NCBI GenBank assembly: GCA_049322335.1
Contig: JBMORL010000100.1
Coordinates: forward strand, 3,723 to 67,722
Origin: Bacteroidota bacterium
GTDB lineage: Bacteria; Bacteroidota; Bacteroidia; Flavobacteriales_D; UBA2798
Length of the DNA: 64,000 nt
Reading direction: 5' to 3'
The notes beneath the pieces are model-generated. The model did no database searches. It was not told where the DNA came from and worked only from the letters and a program-made list of their open reading frames with translations. Every line of letters begins with the position of its first letter. The stretch's first letter is position 1. This document shows positions 9,314-14,575 of this stretch, in pieces. The position numbers and the translations under genes were made by a program.

Positions 9314-11926
9314 TTACCTCGTTAACGTAACGTGTCCTGTGTATTTGTGTTCCGTATTTTGTGAATCCATAAGTTGTATGATATAATAATAAACCCCTTC
9401 CGAAGCTTCTTTACCGTCTTTTTCGCCATTCCAGCTTCCGGTAAGTGTATCATAGCCATACATAAAAAGTCCCCAGCGGTCGTAAATTTCAACATGCAGT
9501 GTATTTACACCGGCAAGATCAAGCTCAAACACATCGTTTACCCCATCACCGTTAGGCGAAAACACATTGGGAATGATGATAAAGAAGTTGGGGACAACAT
9601 TAATAAGAACAGTAGCTGTGTCCGAACATCCGTCAGCATTCACTGCAATCATCGTCACCGTATAGGTGCTATCCGTTATATAGGTTTGGCTGGTAGTAGT
9701 AGAAGTGGTATTTTCAGTAAACCCGTTTCCGTAATCCCATGAATACGCTGTTCCACCGGTGGTAGTATTGGTGAACGTTACATTCAATGGAGAAACTCCC
9801 GAAGAAGGAGAAGCTGTAAAACCGGCATTCACATCCGACACAGTTACAGCTACCACATCGGGAGCGCTGGTACAACCATTCAATGTAGCCACCACCGTAT
9901 AGTTTCCTGCATCGGCTGTGGTTACCGGATCGATAAGCGGATTTTGTGAAGTGGAAGTAAATCCATTGGGGCCGGTCCACGCATAAGTAGCCCCGTTAAT
10001 AGTGTTGGCATTTAATTGCAGCGCGTCTCCTTCACATAAAGGAGAGTTGGAAGAAGCATTTACCACCGGAACAGGATTAACCGTCACTACCATATTATCC
10101 GGTGTGCTTGTACAACCGTTAAGTGTTACTACCACCGTATATGTTCCTGCATCGCCTGTAGCAGCAGGATTGATTACCGGGTTTTGCTGGGAGGATGTGA
10201 ATCCGTTTGGACCTGTCCACGAATAGGTCGCTCCATTTACTGTTGAAGCACTGAGATTGATCGTGTCTCCTTCGCAAACCGTTACATCACTTCCTGCTGT
10301 TACAACAGGATTGGGATTTACCGTTACGTTGGTGGTAGCGGTGGCCGTGCATCCGTTCAGTGTAACGGTAACCGTATATGCGCCCGATCCACTAACGGAT
10401 ATGGGACTGATGGTGGGATTTTGCTGTGAAGAAGTATAACCACCAGGGCCAGTCCATGAATAGGTGGCTCCTGTTACAGTGGGGCTCGATAAATTGATGG
10501 TTCCGTTTTCGCACACCGGCCCGTCATTGGAAGCAGATGCAGTGGGCATAGCGGGATTGGTAATAGTTGCCGTATTGGTACATGCCGGATCAGCCGAAAA
10601 AACTGCCGTTATAGTACAACTTCCTCCGTTGGCAGGTTGTCCGCCTAAAGTATAGGCCTGGGGACTTGTAAACGGTGCAAAAAATGTTTGTGAGCCTCCG
10701 CAGGAAGAACTAACGGTTAGCGAACCGCTGGAAGGCGCATTGGAAAACGTGATTTGGCCATTGGCATCGTATGTTTGATTGGCACAATTGATAGTTCCCA
10801 CGGATGCAGTTACAGAACTGATATTACAAATAGGCGAACAGTTAGCTGGCGCGGTGTAATTAGAGTTAGCCGTACATGCCGGATCAGCAGAAAAAACAGC
10901 TGTAATTGTACAGGAAGAACCATTGGCGGTTAATCCCGTTAAGTTATAATTGGCCGGAGAAACAAACGGAGCATTAAACACCTGGGAACCGCCACAGGAG
11001 TTGGAGACTGTTAATGTTCCTGAGGCAGGTGCATTTGTAAAAGTTACCGCACCGGATACGTCATAGGTATTGGTAGCAGGTACACATGCACCGGGCGTAG
11101 CTGTAAGTGATTGTATACTACACGATAAAGTACATGCTGGCGGTGCCGTATAAGTGGCAGAAGTATTACAGGTAGCATCTGCCGAAAATGTAGCACTAAC
11201 GGTACACGAACTTCCGTTGGCCGTTAGTCCGGTTAAGGAATAGTTTATGGGTGAAGTGAATGGCGCATTAAAAACCTGTGATCCTCCGCAACTGCTGGAT
11301 ATGGTAAGTGTTCCTGAGCCTGGCGGACTGGTTATTACGAGACTTCCTGAAACATCATACGTATTTGTTCCCGAATTACAGGCAGTAGGGTTTGCCGTAA
11401 ATGATTGCACGCCACAAATAATAGAACAATCAGCTGAACCTGCTCCACCGGTTTGTGAAAATGTAATGGTTCCGGGAACATTGGAAAAATTGGTTAATAA
11501 CAAAACATATACCTGACCTACAGAAGCGCTGGGAATCGTAGCTGTTTCCACCGCTGCTGTTGAATAACTGCAATCCACACCCGAAGTAGTCATCAGGCTG
11601 GTTGCACAGGCAGCTGACAAAGAAGAATAAGGTCCCCAGATAATAAAGTCGACATCAATTCCATTTCCGCCCCCGTCAACCTGGCTGATGTTAAAAGTCA
11701 TCGAACCATTTTGGTCGATTTCCATATAATACCATGCCGGATTGGGAGAAGAACCCAGGCAGTCTACAGCCCCAAGGTCTCCATTATTGGTGGAGTTGGG
11801 AAATGTGTAGGTAGTTCCCGTACAAAAAGGATCTGCAGAATTACAGTTTGCTCCCTGTGAAAAACCTTCGCTGAAGGTGGTTAGAAATAAAACGGAAAAC
11901 AGGAGAAAGGATAAATTTTTTTTCAT
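9314..11926 (-). CDS. T9SS type-B CTD (gliding-motility-associated) surface protein with Cys-rich repeats, Ig-like repeats and a PKD domain
   Basis: Signal peptide; C-terminal IPNVFSPNGDGVND...IYDRWG...WNG...GVYYY...GHVTLTR; internal repeats. Confidence 0.92.
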   Translation of the reverse strand: MKKNLSFLLFSVLFLTTFSEGFSQGANCNSADPFCTGTTYTFPNSTNNGDLGAVDCLGSSPNPAWYYMEIDQNGSMTFNISQVDGGGNGIDVDFIIWGPYSSLSAACATSLMTTSGVDCSYSTAAVETATIPSASVGQVYVLLLTNFSNVPGTITFSQTGGAGSADCSIICGVQSFTANPTACNSGTNTYDVSGSLVITSPPGSGTLTISSSCGGSQVFNAPFTSPINYSLTGLTANGSSCTVSATFSADATCNTSATYTAPPACTLSCSIQSLTATPGACVPATNTYDVSGAVTFTNAPASGTLTVSNSCGGSQVFNAPFVSPANYNLTGLTANGSSCTITAVFSADPACTANSNYTAPANCSPICNISSVTASVGTINCANQTYDANGQITFSNAPSSGSLTVSSSCGGSQTFFAPFTSPQAYTLGGQPANGGSCTITAVFSADPACTNTATITNPAMPTASASNDGPVCENGTINLSSPTVTGATYSWTGPGGYTSSQQNPTISPISVSGSGAYTVTVTLNGCTATATTNVTVNPNPVVTAGSDVTVCEGDTINLSASTVNGATYSWTGPNGFTSSQQNPVINPAATGDAGTYTVVVTLNGCTSTPDNMVVTVNPVPVVNASSNSPLCEGDALQLNANTINGATYAWTGPNGFTSTSQNPLIDPVTTADAGNYTVVATLNGCTSAPDVVAVTVSDVNAGFTASPSSGVSPLNVTFTNTTTGGTAYSWDYGNGFTENTTSTTTSQTYITDSTYTVTMIAVNADGCSDTATVLINVVPNFFIIIPNVFSPNGDGVNDVFELDLAGVNTLHVEIYDRWGLFMYGYDTLTGSWNGEKDGKEASEGVYYYIIQLMDSQNTEHKYTGHVTLTR

Positions 11927-12095
11927 CGCCTGAATGGAATTAGTGTTTAGCGCACTAATTTAAGTGAATAATATGAATCCGTACCACATCCGGCCTTCAA
12001 CATTTCCACAATTTTCAATATTGATGGGTTGGCCCATCAGTCAACAGCATGAATGTTTTTTGTGATTTCGGTTATATGCAATGAACCATAGAAAA

Positions 12096-12233
12096 TTAGC
12101 GATGCTTATGAGTATTGGATTTGTTTCCATAAGCCGGGCAATATACTCCTTTTGAACAGGAGGCAAATAAAATTGAAATGGCTAATAAAGCGGTTATCGC
12201 TTTAACGGCTGTAGTGGTTTTGATGGTCTTCAT
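12096..12233 (-). CDS. 45-aa micro-lipoprotein with CPAYG motif
   Basis: MKTIKTTTAVKAITALLAISILFASC-SKGVYCPAYGNKSNTHKHR; SPII lipobox; motif shared with the neighbouring ORF. Confidence 0.72.
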   Translation of the reverse strand: MKTIKTTTAVKAITALLAISILFASCSKGVYCPAYGNKSNTHKHR

Positions 12234-12373
12234 GGCTTCCTTGTTTTGGTTGTTTGATAATAAAGGGAGGGCTTTTATAAAATTCCATAAAACCAACCTC
12301 AAATTATTGATGATCAACAATAAAGAAAAAAATAATCTGCTTTTCATCTCCATAACCTCTCACGGGGAAACAT

Positions 12374-12409
12374 AAAAAAATTCCCCGCCACGATTTCCGT
12401 AACGGGGAG
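12374..12409 (-). terminator. Intrinsic terminator of the 63-aa lipoprotein gene
   Basis: Minus strand TCCCCGTTACG-GAAAT-CGTGGCGGGGA then T7; the G-U pairs fit the minus-strand RNA. Confidence 0.8.
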
Positions 12410-12433
12410 TAAATAGTATAACTATTAAAATGC

Positions 12434-12625
12434 TTAGATCTTCTTTTCGGATTCTATCTCTTTCACGTTTTCCATAAGCGCCCAAACAGCCTTTTTCTCC
12501 GGAAGAACCTGGCCTCCGTATGCGGGGCAGGTACCTTTATGACGGCATGAACTTAATAATACAGCGGTAACAAATAATCCCAGTGATAATCTGGCTACTG
12601 TTAAGGTAAAACGGCTTGCTTTCAT
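12434..12625 (-). CDS. 63-aa micro-lipoprotein with CPAYG motif
   Basis: MKASRFTLTVARLSLGLFVTAVLLSSC-RHKGTCPAYGG...; lipobox LSSC; has its own terminator. Confidence 0.75.
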   Translation of the reverse strand: MKASRFTLTVARLSLGLFVTAVLLSSCRHKGTCPAYGGQVLPEKKAVWALMENVKEIESEKKI

Positions 12626-12786
12626 TTGGCGTGTGTTTAAGTTATTTTAGTTTTCCCGGCTTGTTTTGCTTATTCAGGTCTGCTTTTTCAATTATTCCAC
12701 AAAAATATTTTAATTTTTTCAGTTAACGTTTGATTTTTACGGTAGTTATCAGTCAAATGACGGGCCATTTTGTTCATAAACCACCA

Positions 12787-12821
12787 AAAATCGGATGAAA
12801 TTTACCTAAAATCGGATAAAA
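12787..12821. promoter_or_regulatory. 21-bp-period direct repeat (LytTR/AraC-type binding-site geometry)
   Basis: AAAATCGGATGAAA (12787-12800) and AAAATCGGATAAAA (12808-12821), 13/14 identical. Confidence 0.55.
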
Positions 12822-12900
12822 CGAGAAATTTTAAAAAAGGTTTATGCAATTTTATAAAAAATAGCCCTAAATTGACGAAACACCAAAAATCAGGGCCCGG

Positions 12901-13488
12901 TTGATCATTGCACTGCTAAATAATTACGGACAGTATTCGGATGAATACCTGGTGGAGCATTACCGGCAATCGGGCAATTCCTTTTTTGTGGGCGAACTCT
13001 ATAAGCGGTATTCGCTTCCGGTTACAGCCATTTGCTTTTCTTATTTTAAAGAGCGTAACGAAACCGAAGATACTGTTATGGAGGTGTTTGAAATGGTACT
13101 GGCAGACCTTAAAAAGTATGAGGTTCAGAATTTTAAAGCCTGGCTCCTCACCTCTGTTAAGCATTACTGCCTCAAAAAGAAGGAGAAAAACCAGCGCAAG
13201 ACCGAAAAAGAGCGCGATTTCAAAAAAACCGAAAAACATTTTATGGAATTGCAGGAAGAACTATCCCCTACTGATAAAGAAGCCGATACAGAACGCGTGC
13301 TGGTGCAGCTTCAGCAAGCCATCAGCCAGCTAAAGGGCGAACAAAAAACCTGCCTTGAGCTTTTTTACCTGCAGGATCAATCCTACCAGGAAATTGCAGA
13401 AAGTACAGGCTACGACATTAATAAAGTGAAGAGTTATATACAAAACGGAAAAAGGAACCTTAAACTATTTATGGAAGAAAATGGCTGA
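12901..13488 (+). CDS. ECF (sigma-70 group 4) RNA polymerase sigma factor
   Basis: SDEYLV...GELYKRY, FKAWL region 2; LELFYLQDQSYQEIAESTGYDINKVKSYIQNGKRNLK region 4. Confidence 0.93.
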   Translation: MIIALLNNYGQYSDEYLVEHYRQSGNSFFVGELYKRYSLPVTAICFSYFKERNETEDTVMEVFEMVLADLKKYEVQNFKAWLLTSVKHYCLKKKEKNQRKTEKERDFKKTEKHFMELQEELSPTDKEADTERVLVQLQQAISQLKGEQKTCLELFYLQDQSYQEIAESTGYDINKVKSYIQNGKRNLKLFMEENG

Positions 13489-14575
13489 TGCCATCACACA
13501 TATTATTGCCGGCAAACCGGTTTCGGATGAACTGCTCTCGCGTTTTTTCAGGGGCGATCTGCAACCTGGCGAAATGTCGCGCCTGGAACAACTTATACAA
13601 TCGGATGAATTGTACAGGGAAGTATACGGGGTTATCAGCCACGAGGAATTTCTTTCGTGTATTTCCATCAACCAAAATGTTTGCAAAAAAATAAATGCTT
13701 CCTATCCTTTATCAGGCGGATGGAAATATTATCACTACCTGGGCATTGCCGCAGTTATCGCACTCCTGCTGGCCTGGTGGATGTGGCCCGCTGAAGCTGA
13801 CTCAGATAAGCATCTGCCTGTAACCGGCAAAAATTCTGTTGCCCCGGCAGGAAATGAAAATAAAAATGACAGTGAAATCAGCCATTGGACTCCTTATACC
13901 AATACCTGGCACGAAGAAGACGGGACTGAAAAAGCAAAGGAAAATGAGTCTGCCCTGGAACACGTGGAACCTGGAAATATTGATGATATCTATAAATCCA
14001 TTCCCGAAAATGTAACGGAAGAAACCGCACAGCAAAAACTAACTGGAAAAGAAAATAAAAATCCCGATAACAAAAATAACATCGTTTACCAGGGCGACAA
14101 CACCCGCAAATTTGATGAAAATGCTATTATATCGCTGGATGTAGCGGCAGCACAGGTAGTAATCAAAAACAACCTGGCAGAAATGGACAATACACAAACC
14201 GATCCCAATCACAAAGTAAACGACCCGAATATCGGCAACGCGGTGGTGACAAAAGGCAGGGATTTAAAATATAACATTGCCGATATGCCTTATTACGATG
14301 GTGGCGACCTCGTGCTCAATGTTTATGTTGAAAGCCATCTCGATCAGAAAATTTCTATCCGAAGAAAACAATTTGTGGAAAGTGTATTGGTAAAATTCGA
14401 CCTCACCGCCAAAGGAAAAATAGAAAATGTGGAAGTAATGGGTATTGACGTTCCCGAAAACATGAAAAAGGAAATTGAAAAAGTAATTAAAGAAGCACCG
14501 GGATGGCGTGCAGGGAAAAAATCAGGAAGAAAAGGTTCGATGCAGTATACCATAGCTATAAGCTTTTCTTATTAA
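13481..14575 (+). CDS. Putative anti-sigma factor: N-terminal anti-sigma domain, one TM helix, C-terminal TonB_C-like domain
   Basis: Overlaps the sigma stop codon; TM LGIAAVIALLLAWWMW; MPYYDGG...VLVKFDL..GKIENVEV...PGWRAG...YTIAISF. Confidence 0.78.
   Translation: MADAITHIIAGKPVSDELLSRFFRGDLQPGEMSRLEQLIQSDELYREVYGVISHEEFLSCISINQNVCKKINASYPLSGGWKYYHYLGIAAVIALLLAWWMWPAEADSDKHLPVTGKNSVAPAGNENKNDSEISHWTPYTNTWHEEDGTEKAKENESALEHVEPGNIDDIYKSIPENVTEETAQQKLTGKENKNPDNKNNIVYQGDNTRKFDENAIISLDVAAAQVVIKNNLAEMDNTQTDPNHKVNDPNIGNAVVTKGRDLKYNIADMPYYDGGDLVLNVYVESHLDQKISIRRKQFVESVLVKFDLTAKGKIENVEVMGIDVPENMKKEIEKVIKEAPGWRAGKKSGRKGSMQYTIAISFSY

Follow-up and report, generated by a model that had tools for sequence, protein, structure and literature searches.

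What do two very small lipoprotein genes do beside an extracytoplasmic function (ECF) sigma factor, and is it this sigma factor that transcribes them? The question is raised by a stretch of 64,000 nucleotides (the window) of contig JBMORL010000100.1 from a Bacteroidota bacterium (assembly GCA_049322335.1), where two open reading frames (ORFs) on the minus strand, ORF1 and ORF2, lie divergently from the genes of an ECF sigma factor and its anti-sigma factor (Table 1). An earlier note on this DNA had proposed the lipopeptides as outputs of the adjacent sigma system. The proposal as outputs gained computational support: a promoter motif stands ahead of both ORFs and of the sigma factor gene, the lipoproteins are linked to one clade of sigma factors, and copies that are not linked to the sigma factor keep the motif. 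From these comparisons, both ORFs are likely transcribed by the adjacent ECF255-type sigma factor, each from a promoter motif of its own.

Table 1. Features of the lipoprotein and sigma factor locus, with positions in the window
Feature	Position	Strand	Remarks
Micro-lipoprotein ORF1	12096..12233	-	45 aa, mature 20 aa; lipid-Cys-x5-CPAY
Micro-lipoprotein ORF2	12434..12625	-	63 aa, mature 37 aa; in the position of the relatives' single sigma-side copy
Intrinsic-terminator-like hairpin and T run, after ORF2	12382..12408	-	
Predicted ECF255-type promoter of ORF1	12264..12291	-	TTTATGGAAT-N15-CCT; ends 31 nt before the ATG; rank 1, 28.4 bits
Predicted promoter of ORF2	12676..12703	-	TTTGTGGAAT-N15-CCT; rank 3, 18.1 bits
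Predicted autoregulatory promoter of the sigma operon	12841..12868	+	TTTATGCAAT-N15-CCT; one mismatch in the -35; rank 2, 21.5 bits
ECF sigma factor, ECF255-like	12901..13488	+	19-row clade with CCTA-type -10; TTG start, exact start uncertain
Anti-sigma factor, 364 aa	13481..14575	+	helical N-terminal domain 6-74, predicted transmembrane helix 81-100, linker, strand, TonB/TolA-like C-terminal domain
Conserved anti-sigma strand, residues 216-231	14126..14173	+	predicted at the edge where its own TonB_C domain binds ligand

The two lipoprotein genes and their predicted promoters

ORF1 and ORF2 are almost certainly real genes. As the earlier note had read them, both encode a lipobox followed by C-x5-CPAYG, and their lengths and mature lengths were confirmed; the two proteins are 30% identical. 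The features of a signal peptidase II signal peptide, namely a basic n-region, a hydrophobic h-region and the lipobox, are recognised by sequence and alignment, and the cysteine is invariant (33/33). The open frame of ORF1 begins 40 codons ahead of the ATG at 12233, and the start was set at this ATG because the promoter position and the homologs favour it. The pair is also more than a chance occurrence. An ortholog of the anti-sigma factor was found in 6 of 11 genomes of the same family; in each of the five relatives with complete upstream DNA one CPAY lipoprotein gene lies divergently from the sigma factor gene, and the sixth contig stops at the expected start. The codons of the motif vary synonymously in the 13 genes checked. 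The tandem arrangement beside the sigma factor holds for the window, whereas the same-family relatives carry one copy.

The terminator that had been suspected between the two genes was located as a terminator-like hairpin, in a segment (12370-12433) with a folding energy of -21.3 kcal/mol; the scan found 2 terminators against 3.7 in shuffled sequences and so gave no overall excess.

Alignment of the upstream regions revealed the motif TTTRTGGAAW-N15/16-CCT(A) before both ORFs of the window and in 6/6 same-family relatives, with no other intergenic similarity in these regions. Exact-consensus sites precede the sigma factor gene in genomes G006, G011, G024, G038 and G048. A matrix trained on 31 sites, all from relatives, gave the scores in Table 1, where the ranks refer to the intergenic positions of the window's own genome (G000; 4.27 Mb, 99.98% complete). 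The -35 element resembles the motif TATGGAT given for ECF255 in the accessible text of PMC7826278.

A second reading frame within the end of ORF2 (window 12360-12500, minus strand) reads CLGAYG and then a run of charged residues, which may be a relic of an internal duplication. A frameshift in ORF2, as this frame might suggest, was rejected, as the close homologs P0008, P0009 and P0019 keep the frame of ORF2 to the end. Contigs of four studies held 8 variant sites, all of them non-coding, a weak result with patchy coverage of the ORFs and one run near-identical to the window. A search of window positions 11800-13000 against Rfam gave two chance-level matches only.

Linkage to one clade of sigma factors

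In a tree of 106 related sigma factors, that of the window falls in a clade of 19 rows, which a more careful tree supports with 100/96.7. Linkage was counted at the best 80 of 593 sigma loci confirmed in a GTDB scan. A lipoprotein of the family described below lies within 4 kb at 7/8 clade loci, the contig of the eighth stopping at the expected ATG, vs 0/72 others, and the linkage to this sigma group that the earlier note had looked for is thereby found. A CCTA-type -10 element is present at 7/8 clade loci (one was not located) and at 0/72 others, where 24 loci have a CATC-type -10 and 48 no site. Unlinked peptide genes that have kept the promoter occur in G038, G048 and G024, and the clade sigma factor there carries the same site upstream. 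The promoter precedes 11 of 15 copies in genomes with the clade anti-sigma factor, compared with 1 of 22 in genomes without it. Regulation by the window's sigma factor is likely, since its three sites hold the top three ranks of the matrix, the linkage is specific to the clade and the promoter is kept at unlinked copies.

Several points weigh against this reading. The clade loci perhaps represent three lineages, so that kin are not independent, and relatives counted before recur at three of the 80 loci. Some of the matrix's training sites were orthologous positions, and a few were probably there by chance. Four genomes with the clade from another family (G040, G028, G104 and G148) have other genes beside the sigma factor, and the copies examined there have no promoter. 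G058 has a promoter-led copy, and the clade anti-sigma factor was not found in its 93% complete assembly. Finally, G000 carries a second, canonical ECF255-like sigma factor with the same -35 element, which makes cross-talk possible.

The promoters may accordingly be read mainly by this second sigma factor, or the linkage may be inherited synteny without regulation by the neighbour. A TATGGAA -35 is indeed common to both sigma types, the wider gene order is kept within the family, and the copy in G058 would agree with such an explanation. Against it, the -10 class tracks the sigma clade, the site is missing at 21/22 copies from genomes without the clade anti-sigma factor, and the pair persists where the flanks are unrelated; we consider it improbable. 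The canonical unit itself (G000:C81:6700-9230) consists of a TTTATGGAAT/GCATCT site, a CarboxypepD_reg and Plug-like gene without a barrel, the sigma factor and its anti-sigma factor. The former gene resembles a barrel-less CarboxypepD_reg and Plug protein of G001, and the anti-sigma factor the TPR-bearing ones of the relatives.

The predicted regulon of the window's sigma factor is small. At 13-17 bits the true spacer gave 15/9/3 matches and wrong spacers gave 12-19/6-12/1-6, which is no excess and a further point against reading much into the matrix at these scores. Because of this, the top sites alone are distinct from background, and the matrix points to no larger regulon here; a genome scan with a simple pattern likewise showed neither spacer enrichment nor a broad regulon. 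Intergenic matches of the promoter pattern before a PorG-like gene, a PorE/OmpA-like gene and a type IX secretion system (T9SS) cargo gene in L339 (G148), L340 (G104) and L313 (G031) are only a hint at a T9SS-related regulon, with pattern counts near control level there.

In L185, L197, L209 and L211 a non-coding block is conserved ~50-130 nt past the lipoprotein stop, before a terminator-like hairpin, and its core (CATGTGTTTCATGTGTTTG) is rich in G and U. The core is complementary to GCAAACAC in the 5' leader of the sigma factor of L185 and L211. Rfam had no match for the block and gave nothing at gathering level in four loci of relatives, and the core was not found in G000. The block is a candidate small RNA of the 3' untranslated region that would feed back on the sigma factor.

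An unnamed family of micro-lipoproteins

Neither ORF1 nor ORF2 has a Pfam/NCBIfam family match above cut-off. The BamJ/K, PG1828, TrbK and LptM models matched the peptides far below cut-off and mostly in the signal peptide, and were rejected. Single-sequence searches with ORF1 returned itself and one unaligned 809-aa match, the ESM Atlas gave unnamed clusters only (0.89-0.90), and no close relatives were found in a metagenome scan. Because single-sequence searches gave nothing useful, the family was reached via synteny and profiles. Homologs with a conserved CPAY, as called for by the earlier note, were found by the profile search. It added many further members in the order, where its weaker matches cover no more than the signal peptide, and in a sample of 251 genomes from the phylum it led to verified members in 11 other genomes of the class.

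Judged from these alignments, ORF1 and ORF2 belong to an unnamed family of Bacteroidia micro-lipoproteins that consist of a lipid-Cys, a basic linker of 4-12 residues and C-[P/D]-A-Y. Among 95 distinct members, both cysteines, the alanine and the Tyr/Phe are fixed, partly owing to how the members were collected, and the second position of the motif is occupied by Pro in 75 members and by Asp in 14. A net basic linker is seen in 79 members, a third cysteine is found in only two, and mature lengths are 17-45 aa. The shared C-x5-CPAYG of the window is thus real for both ORFs, whereas neither its spacing nor its final Gly is a constant of the family, in which the spacer between the cysteines has 4-12 residues. 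In Bacteroidota, acidic residues right after the lipid-Cys are the rule for export to the surface. Two acidic residues in this place occur in 1/95 members, and for this reason the peptides would be retained on the side of the periplasm.

Most of the copies examined lie at one type of locus, omp85/POTRA - ung - peptide(s) - osmC - a gene for an unnamed 250-aa protein - lipA. Tandem pairs of peptides also occur at this locus, where the copies are often preceded by TAnnTTTG, an element of housekeeping type. The third copy of the window's genome (G000:C81:77949-78098) is at such an omp85-type locus, with no ECF pair anywhere near.

Related lipoproteins, likewise tiny but with CPAF or C-x-C-P as the motif, are encoded at G000:C36:30812-30961 and in L299, L301 and L314. 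Those of G024 and G038 stand behind the same promoter motif; that of G000 is not among the listed promoter matches. Two longer lipoproteins (L158:1477-2127, 216 aa, and L349:1252-2217, 321 aa), without an NCBIfam family, start with lipid-Cys-x4-CPAY, so that the motif also serves as an N-terminal module. A vWA-like lipoprotein of 595 aa with a T9SS type A tail (G000:C81:99676-101463; L348:1177-2964, minus strand) begins with lipid-Cys-x5-APAYGG and has an S-x-TGW-x-Y motif that is also present in the N-terminal part of a GldJ-like gene at G000:C37:68262. Its weak promoter copy, at 13.5 bits, is at background level.

The anti-sigma factor and its relation to ECF255

The divergent sigma and TonB_C-type anti-sigma factors of the earlier note were recovered by TIGR02937 (E 2.8e-20 for the sigma factor), Pfam and fold matches. 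In the anti-sigma factor, the single predicted transmembrane helix coincides with a hydrophobic stretch, and the linker (residues 106-208) is predicted to be disordered. The TonB_C match at residues 301-363 (Pfam E 4.4e-5) has 24.3 bits for a cut-off of 24.6. In the predicted model, the C-terminal domain (about 270-364) has the fold of the TonB/TolA C-terminal domain by structural match. The best such match of the model is 1tol, a g3p-TolA fusion, with a middling score (Z 7.0, rmsd 3.6, 92 aligned residues, range 222-364); for the N-terminal part, RslA and RsiW are weak structural matches (Z 3.3-3.4). Residues 216-231 form a block of high predicted local distance difference test values flanked by disordered segments, and their hydrophobic pattern is kept in the alignment of anti-sigma factors. 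The model suggests that this strand fills the ligand edge of the TonB_C domain until an outside strand displaces it.

Anti-sigma factors of the clade at L185:4544-5611, L197:4535-5635, L209:4533-5177 and L211:4540-5628 bear an H-x3-C-x2-C motif of zinc-binding type, which is missing from that of the window; the ORF of L209 is short (214 aa).

The predicted edge strand and the TonB/TolA fold would also suit a feedback loop, in which the tail of the peptide acts as a TonB-box mimic, binds the TonB_C domain and so acts back on the sigma factor. Several promoter-led copies do have a Val/Ile-rich, strand-like stretch after the basic run. ORF1 and the L185 copy, however, are without such a tail, the tails are unconserved by alignment, and the invariant CPAY core is common to copies in genomes where the clade anti-sigma factor was not found. 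A complex prediction with residues 205-364 of the anti-sigma factor and mature ORF2 returned 'no answer' (0.02, mark 0.32), which is evidence in neither direction. On balance, a feedback role of the tail is rather improbable.

In a literature search that covered few subscription journals, no description of such a lipoprotein family or circuit was found, and ECF255 turned up in one paper only, a computational classification (Casas-Pastor et al. 2021, PMC7826278). In its accessible text, ECF255 comprises Bacteroidetes sigma factors with a single-transmembrane, TonB_C-bearing anti-sigma factor and a TATGGAT / GCATCT promoter; the anti-sigma factors are proposed as sensors of Ton-box transporters, and neither a characterised member nor such a peptide is named there.

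Compared with that text, the window shares a Bacteroidota ECF sigma factor (TIGR02937 above cut-off, relatives labelled Bacteroidota and a close homolog of the lipoprotein labelled Flavobacteriales), an anti-sigma factor at +1 with one transmembrane helix and TonB_C (0.3 bit under the Pfam cut-off, with an agreeing fold), a -35 of TATGGA(A)T and a target gene adjoining the sigma factor. It differs in the -10 of its clade, which is CCT(A) and not GCATCT, the sister sigma factors having CATC. No carboxypeptidase-regulatory domain was detected in its anti-sigma factor with Pfam at E<=0.1, and the region is predicted to be disordered. The -1 position, usually taken by a vWA/DUF3520 protein in ECF255, is held by the micro-lipoproteins. 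Genes for vWA proteins with the promoter motif occur unlinked in G031.

The clade of the window is sister to the sigma factors with the published ECF255 motif. Most likely, the pair is an ECF255 subclade, an assignment made by tree and features. The new module of the earlier note stands in part: its likely lipopeptide output is undescribed, whereas its sigma pair matches the described ECF255, and most copies examined are independent of the sigma factor. What is new here is the promoter motif of the subclade at each ORF and at the sigma factor, and a likely, undescribed lipopeptide output of a computationally known ECF group.

Possible partners of the lipopeptides

The accessible part of Liu et al. 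2025 (PMC12635249) reports that the tails of SprF and PorG disulfide-bond to Cys343 of GldK, that this reactive cysteine points towards the outer membrane, that there is a large excess of GldK, and that in models only the residues around the disulfide make contact. By analogy, a lipid-anchored basic CPAY peptide fits this geometry, its basic linker and single free cysteine resembling the basic Cys tails of the PorP/SprF/PorG barrels. Compared with these carriers as described there, the peptides have neither an outer-membrane beta-barrel (45 and 63 aa, no family match) nor cargo, are held by the N-terminal lipid, and have one free cysteine instead of CxC. In the window's genome, 6/24 PorP/SprF barrels have C-P-x-[F/W/Y/L] at their end, in most cases preceded by basic residues. 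A C-P-x-[F/Y/W] near the C-terminus occurs in 6 long ORFs vs 1.3 expected, five of these being PorP/SprF and one an antisense artefact. The PorG of this genome has a single-Cys tail, and its GldK a GCF cysteine motif. A PorG-like tail at G000:C36:14952 was rejected, the ORF being antisense to a real gene.

The case for GldK has clear weaknesses. The motif is missing from 18/24 PorP/SprF barrels of this genome, and SprF and PorG of F. johnsoniae use a CxC pair, not a single cysteine. GldK was found in 63/63 same-class genomes sampled and verified peptides in only 12 of them, the window's own included, and the co-occurrence is confounded with class. No copy examined adjoins gld genes, and the analogy with GldK-bound tails rests on a short resemblance of four residues. 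We therefore regard GldK as a possible partner of the peptide cysteine, with the balance leaning against it.

The cysteine of the sigma-induced lipopeptides may instead dock on some other protein of the outer membrane, for instance the Omp85-family barrel or the 250-aa protein that flank the housekeeping copies, or it may homodimerise, the peptides being a general factor of envelope repair or assembly. LptM and the VirB7-type lipoproteins are analogies for such a role. This alternative draws on the commonest locus of the copies examined, on the CPAY motif heading the longer lipoproteins L158 and L349, and on the mixed envelope proteins (vWA/YfbK, DUF4139, PepO-like) encoded by further genes behind the promoter in clade genomes. 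The link to omp85 does not hold everywhere, however, as Cytophagales- and Sphingobacteriales-type matches have different neighbours, and the matches to LptM, BamJ/K and PG1828 are confined to the signal peptide region and far below cut-off. It is an unlikely alternative, although the most serious of those considered.

The peptides could also block TonB-dependent transporters from the periplasm, as the Llp and Cor lipoproteins of phage T5 block FhuA. Llp (8a60_B, E 0.057) is the second-best PDB match of the family profile, aligned via the lipobox and C-x-A-Y, and likewise is a small lipoprotein in which the lipid-Cys is followed by C-x-A-Y; the proposal that ECF255 anti-sigma factors sense Ton-box transporters, made in the accessible text of PMC7826278, would suit this role. 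The match is not significant, however. According to the accessible part of bioRxiv 10.64898/2026.03.26.714494, Llp is a folded 7-kDa domain of four strands with an internal disulfide between Cys11 and Cys58, whereas the peptides are shorter (17-45 aa when mature) and lack the partner cysteine, a third Cys being missing from 93/95 family members. Transporter blocking is very improbable.

Small exported Cys peptides beside an ECF/anti-sigma pair also occur among the MNIO-modified peptides of bufferin/chryseobasin type, which are under ECF control. The window peptides differ from these in being lipoproteins with one free cysteine, and no DUF692/MNIO enzyme (PF05114) was found in the 99.98% complete G000. 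With no barrel, a third cysteine in only 2/95 members and no PF05114 in G000, the peptides are not members of the PorP/SprF proteins, of Llp/Cor or of the MNIO-dependent ribosomally synthesised and post-translationally modified peptides.

Neighbouring gene

The gene just downstream of ORF1 (window 9314-11926, minus strand) encodes a PKD/Ig protein of 870 aa whose tail is of T9SS type B. None of the five relatives with complete upstream sequence has it here; in these, the peptide gene is directly next to the M61 peptidase gene.

Proposed mechanism and its meaning

In the usual logic of ECF systems, the anti-sigma factor holds the sigma factor until a signal releases it. Here, the membrane-anchored anti-sigma factor would hold the sigma factor at the inner membrane, and its TonB_C domain, on a disordered linker of ~100 residues, would reach the outer membrane. 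A cue at the outer membrane, possibly a TonB-box-like strand displacing the strand of residues 216-231, would release the sigma factor, which would then transcribe itself and both lipopeptides. The lipopeptides, likely on the outer membrane's periplasmic side, would cap the reactive cysteine of GldK or compete for it, and would in this way tune T9SS export or gliding.

As a whole, the explanation that these are sigma-transcribed micro-lipoproteins mimicking the PorP/SprF/PorG tails that bond the GldK track is tentative, and we place it somewhat short of an even chance. Its fullest form, an ECF255 subclade with a promoter code of its own, a self-occluded TonB_C anti-sigma factor sensing the state of the outer membrane, and cargo-less lipopeptide decoys bonding GldK, is unlikely to hold in every part.

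The locus gives ECF255 a concrete, testable circuit, with a subclade promoter, autoregulation and a defined small output, and it would bring a widespread unnamed family of micro-lipoproteins under the control of a regulator of known type. Bonding of the peptides to GldK, if it occurs, would make them the first known to regulate the disulfide-linked track, recently found, by which gliding and type IX secretion are driven, and this would bear on the occupancy of the excess GldK cysteines. If the mechanism as a whole is true, it would amount to a covalent clutch or cap, inducible by the cell, that acts on the gliding and type IX secretion of Bacteroidota.

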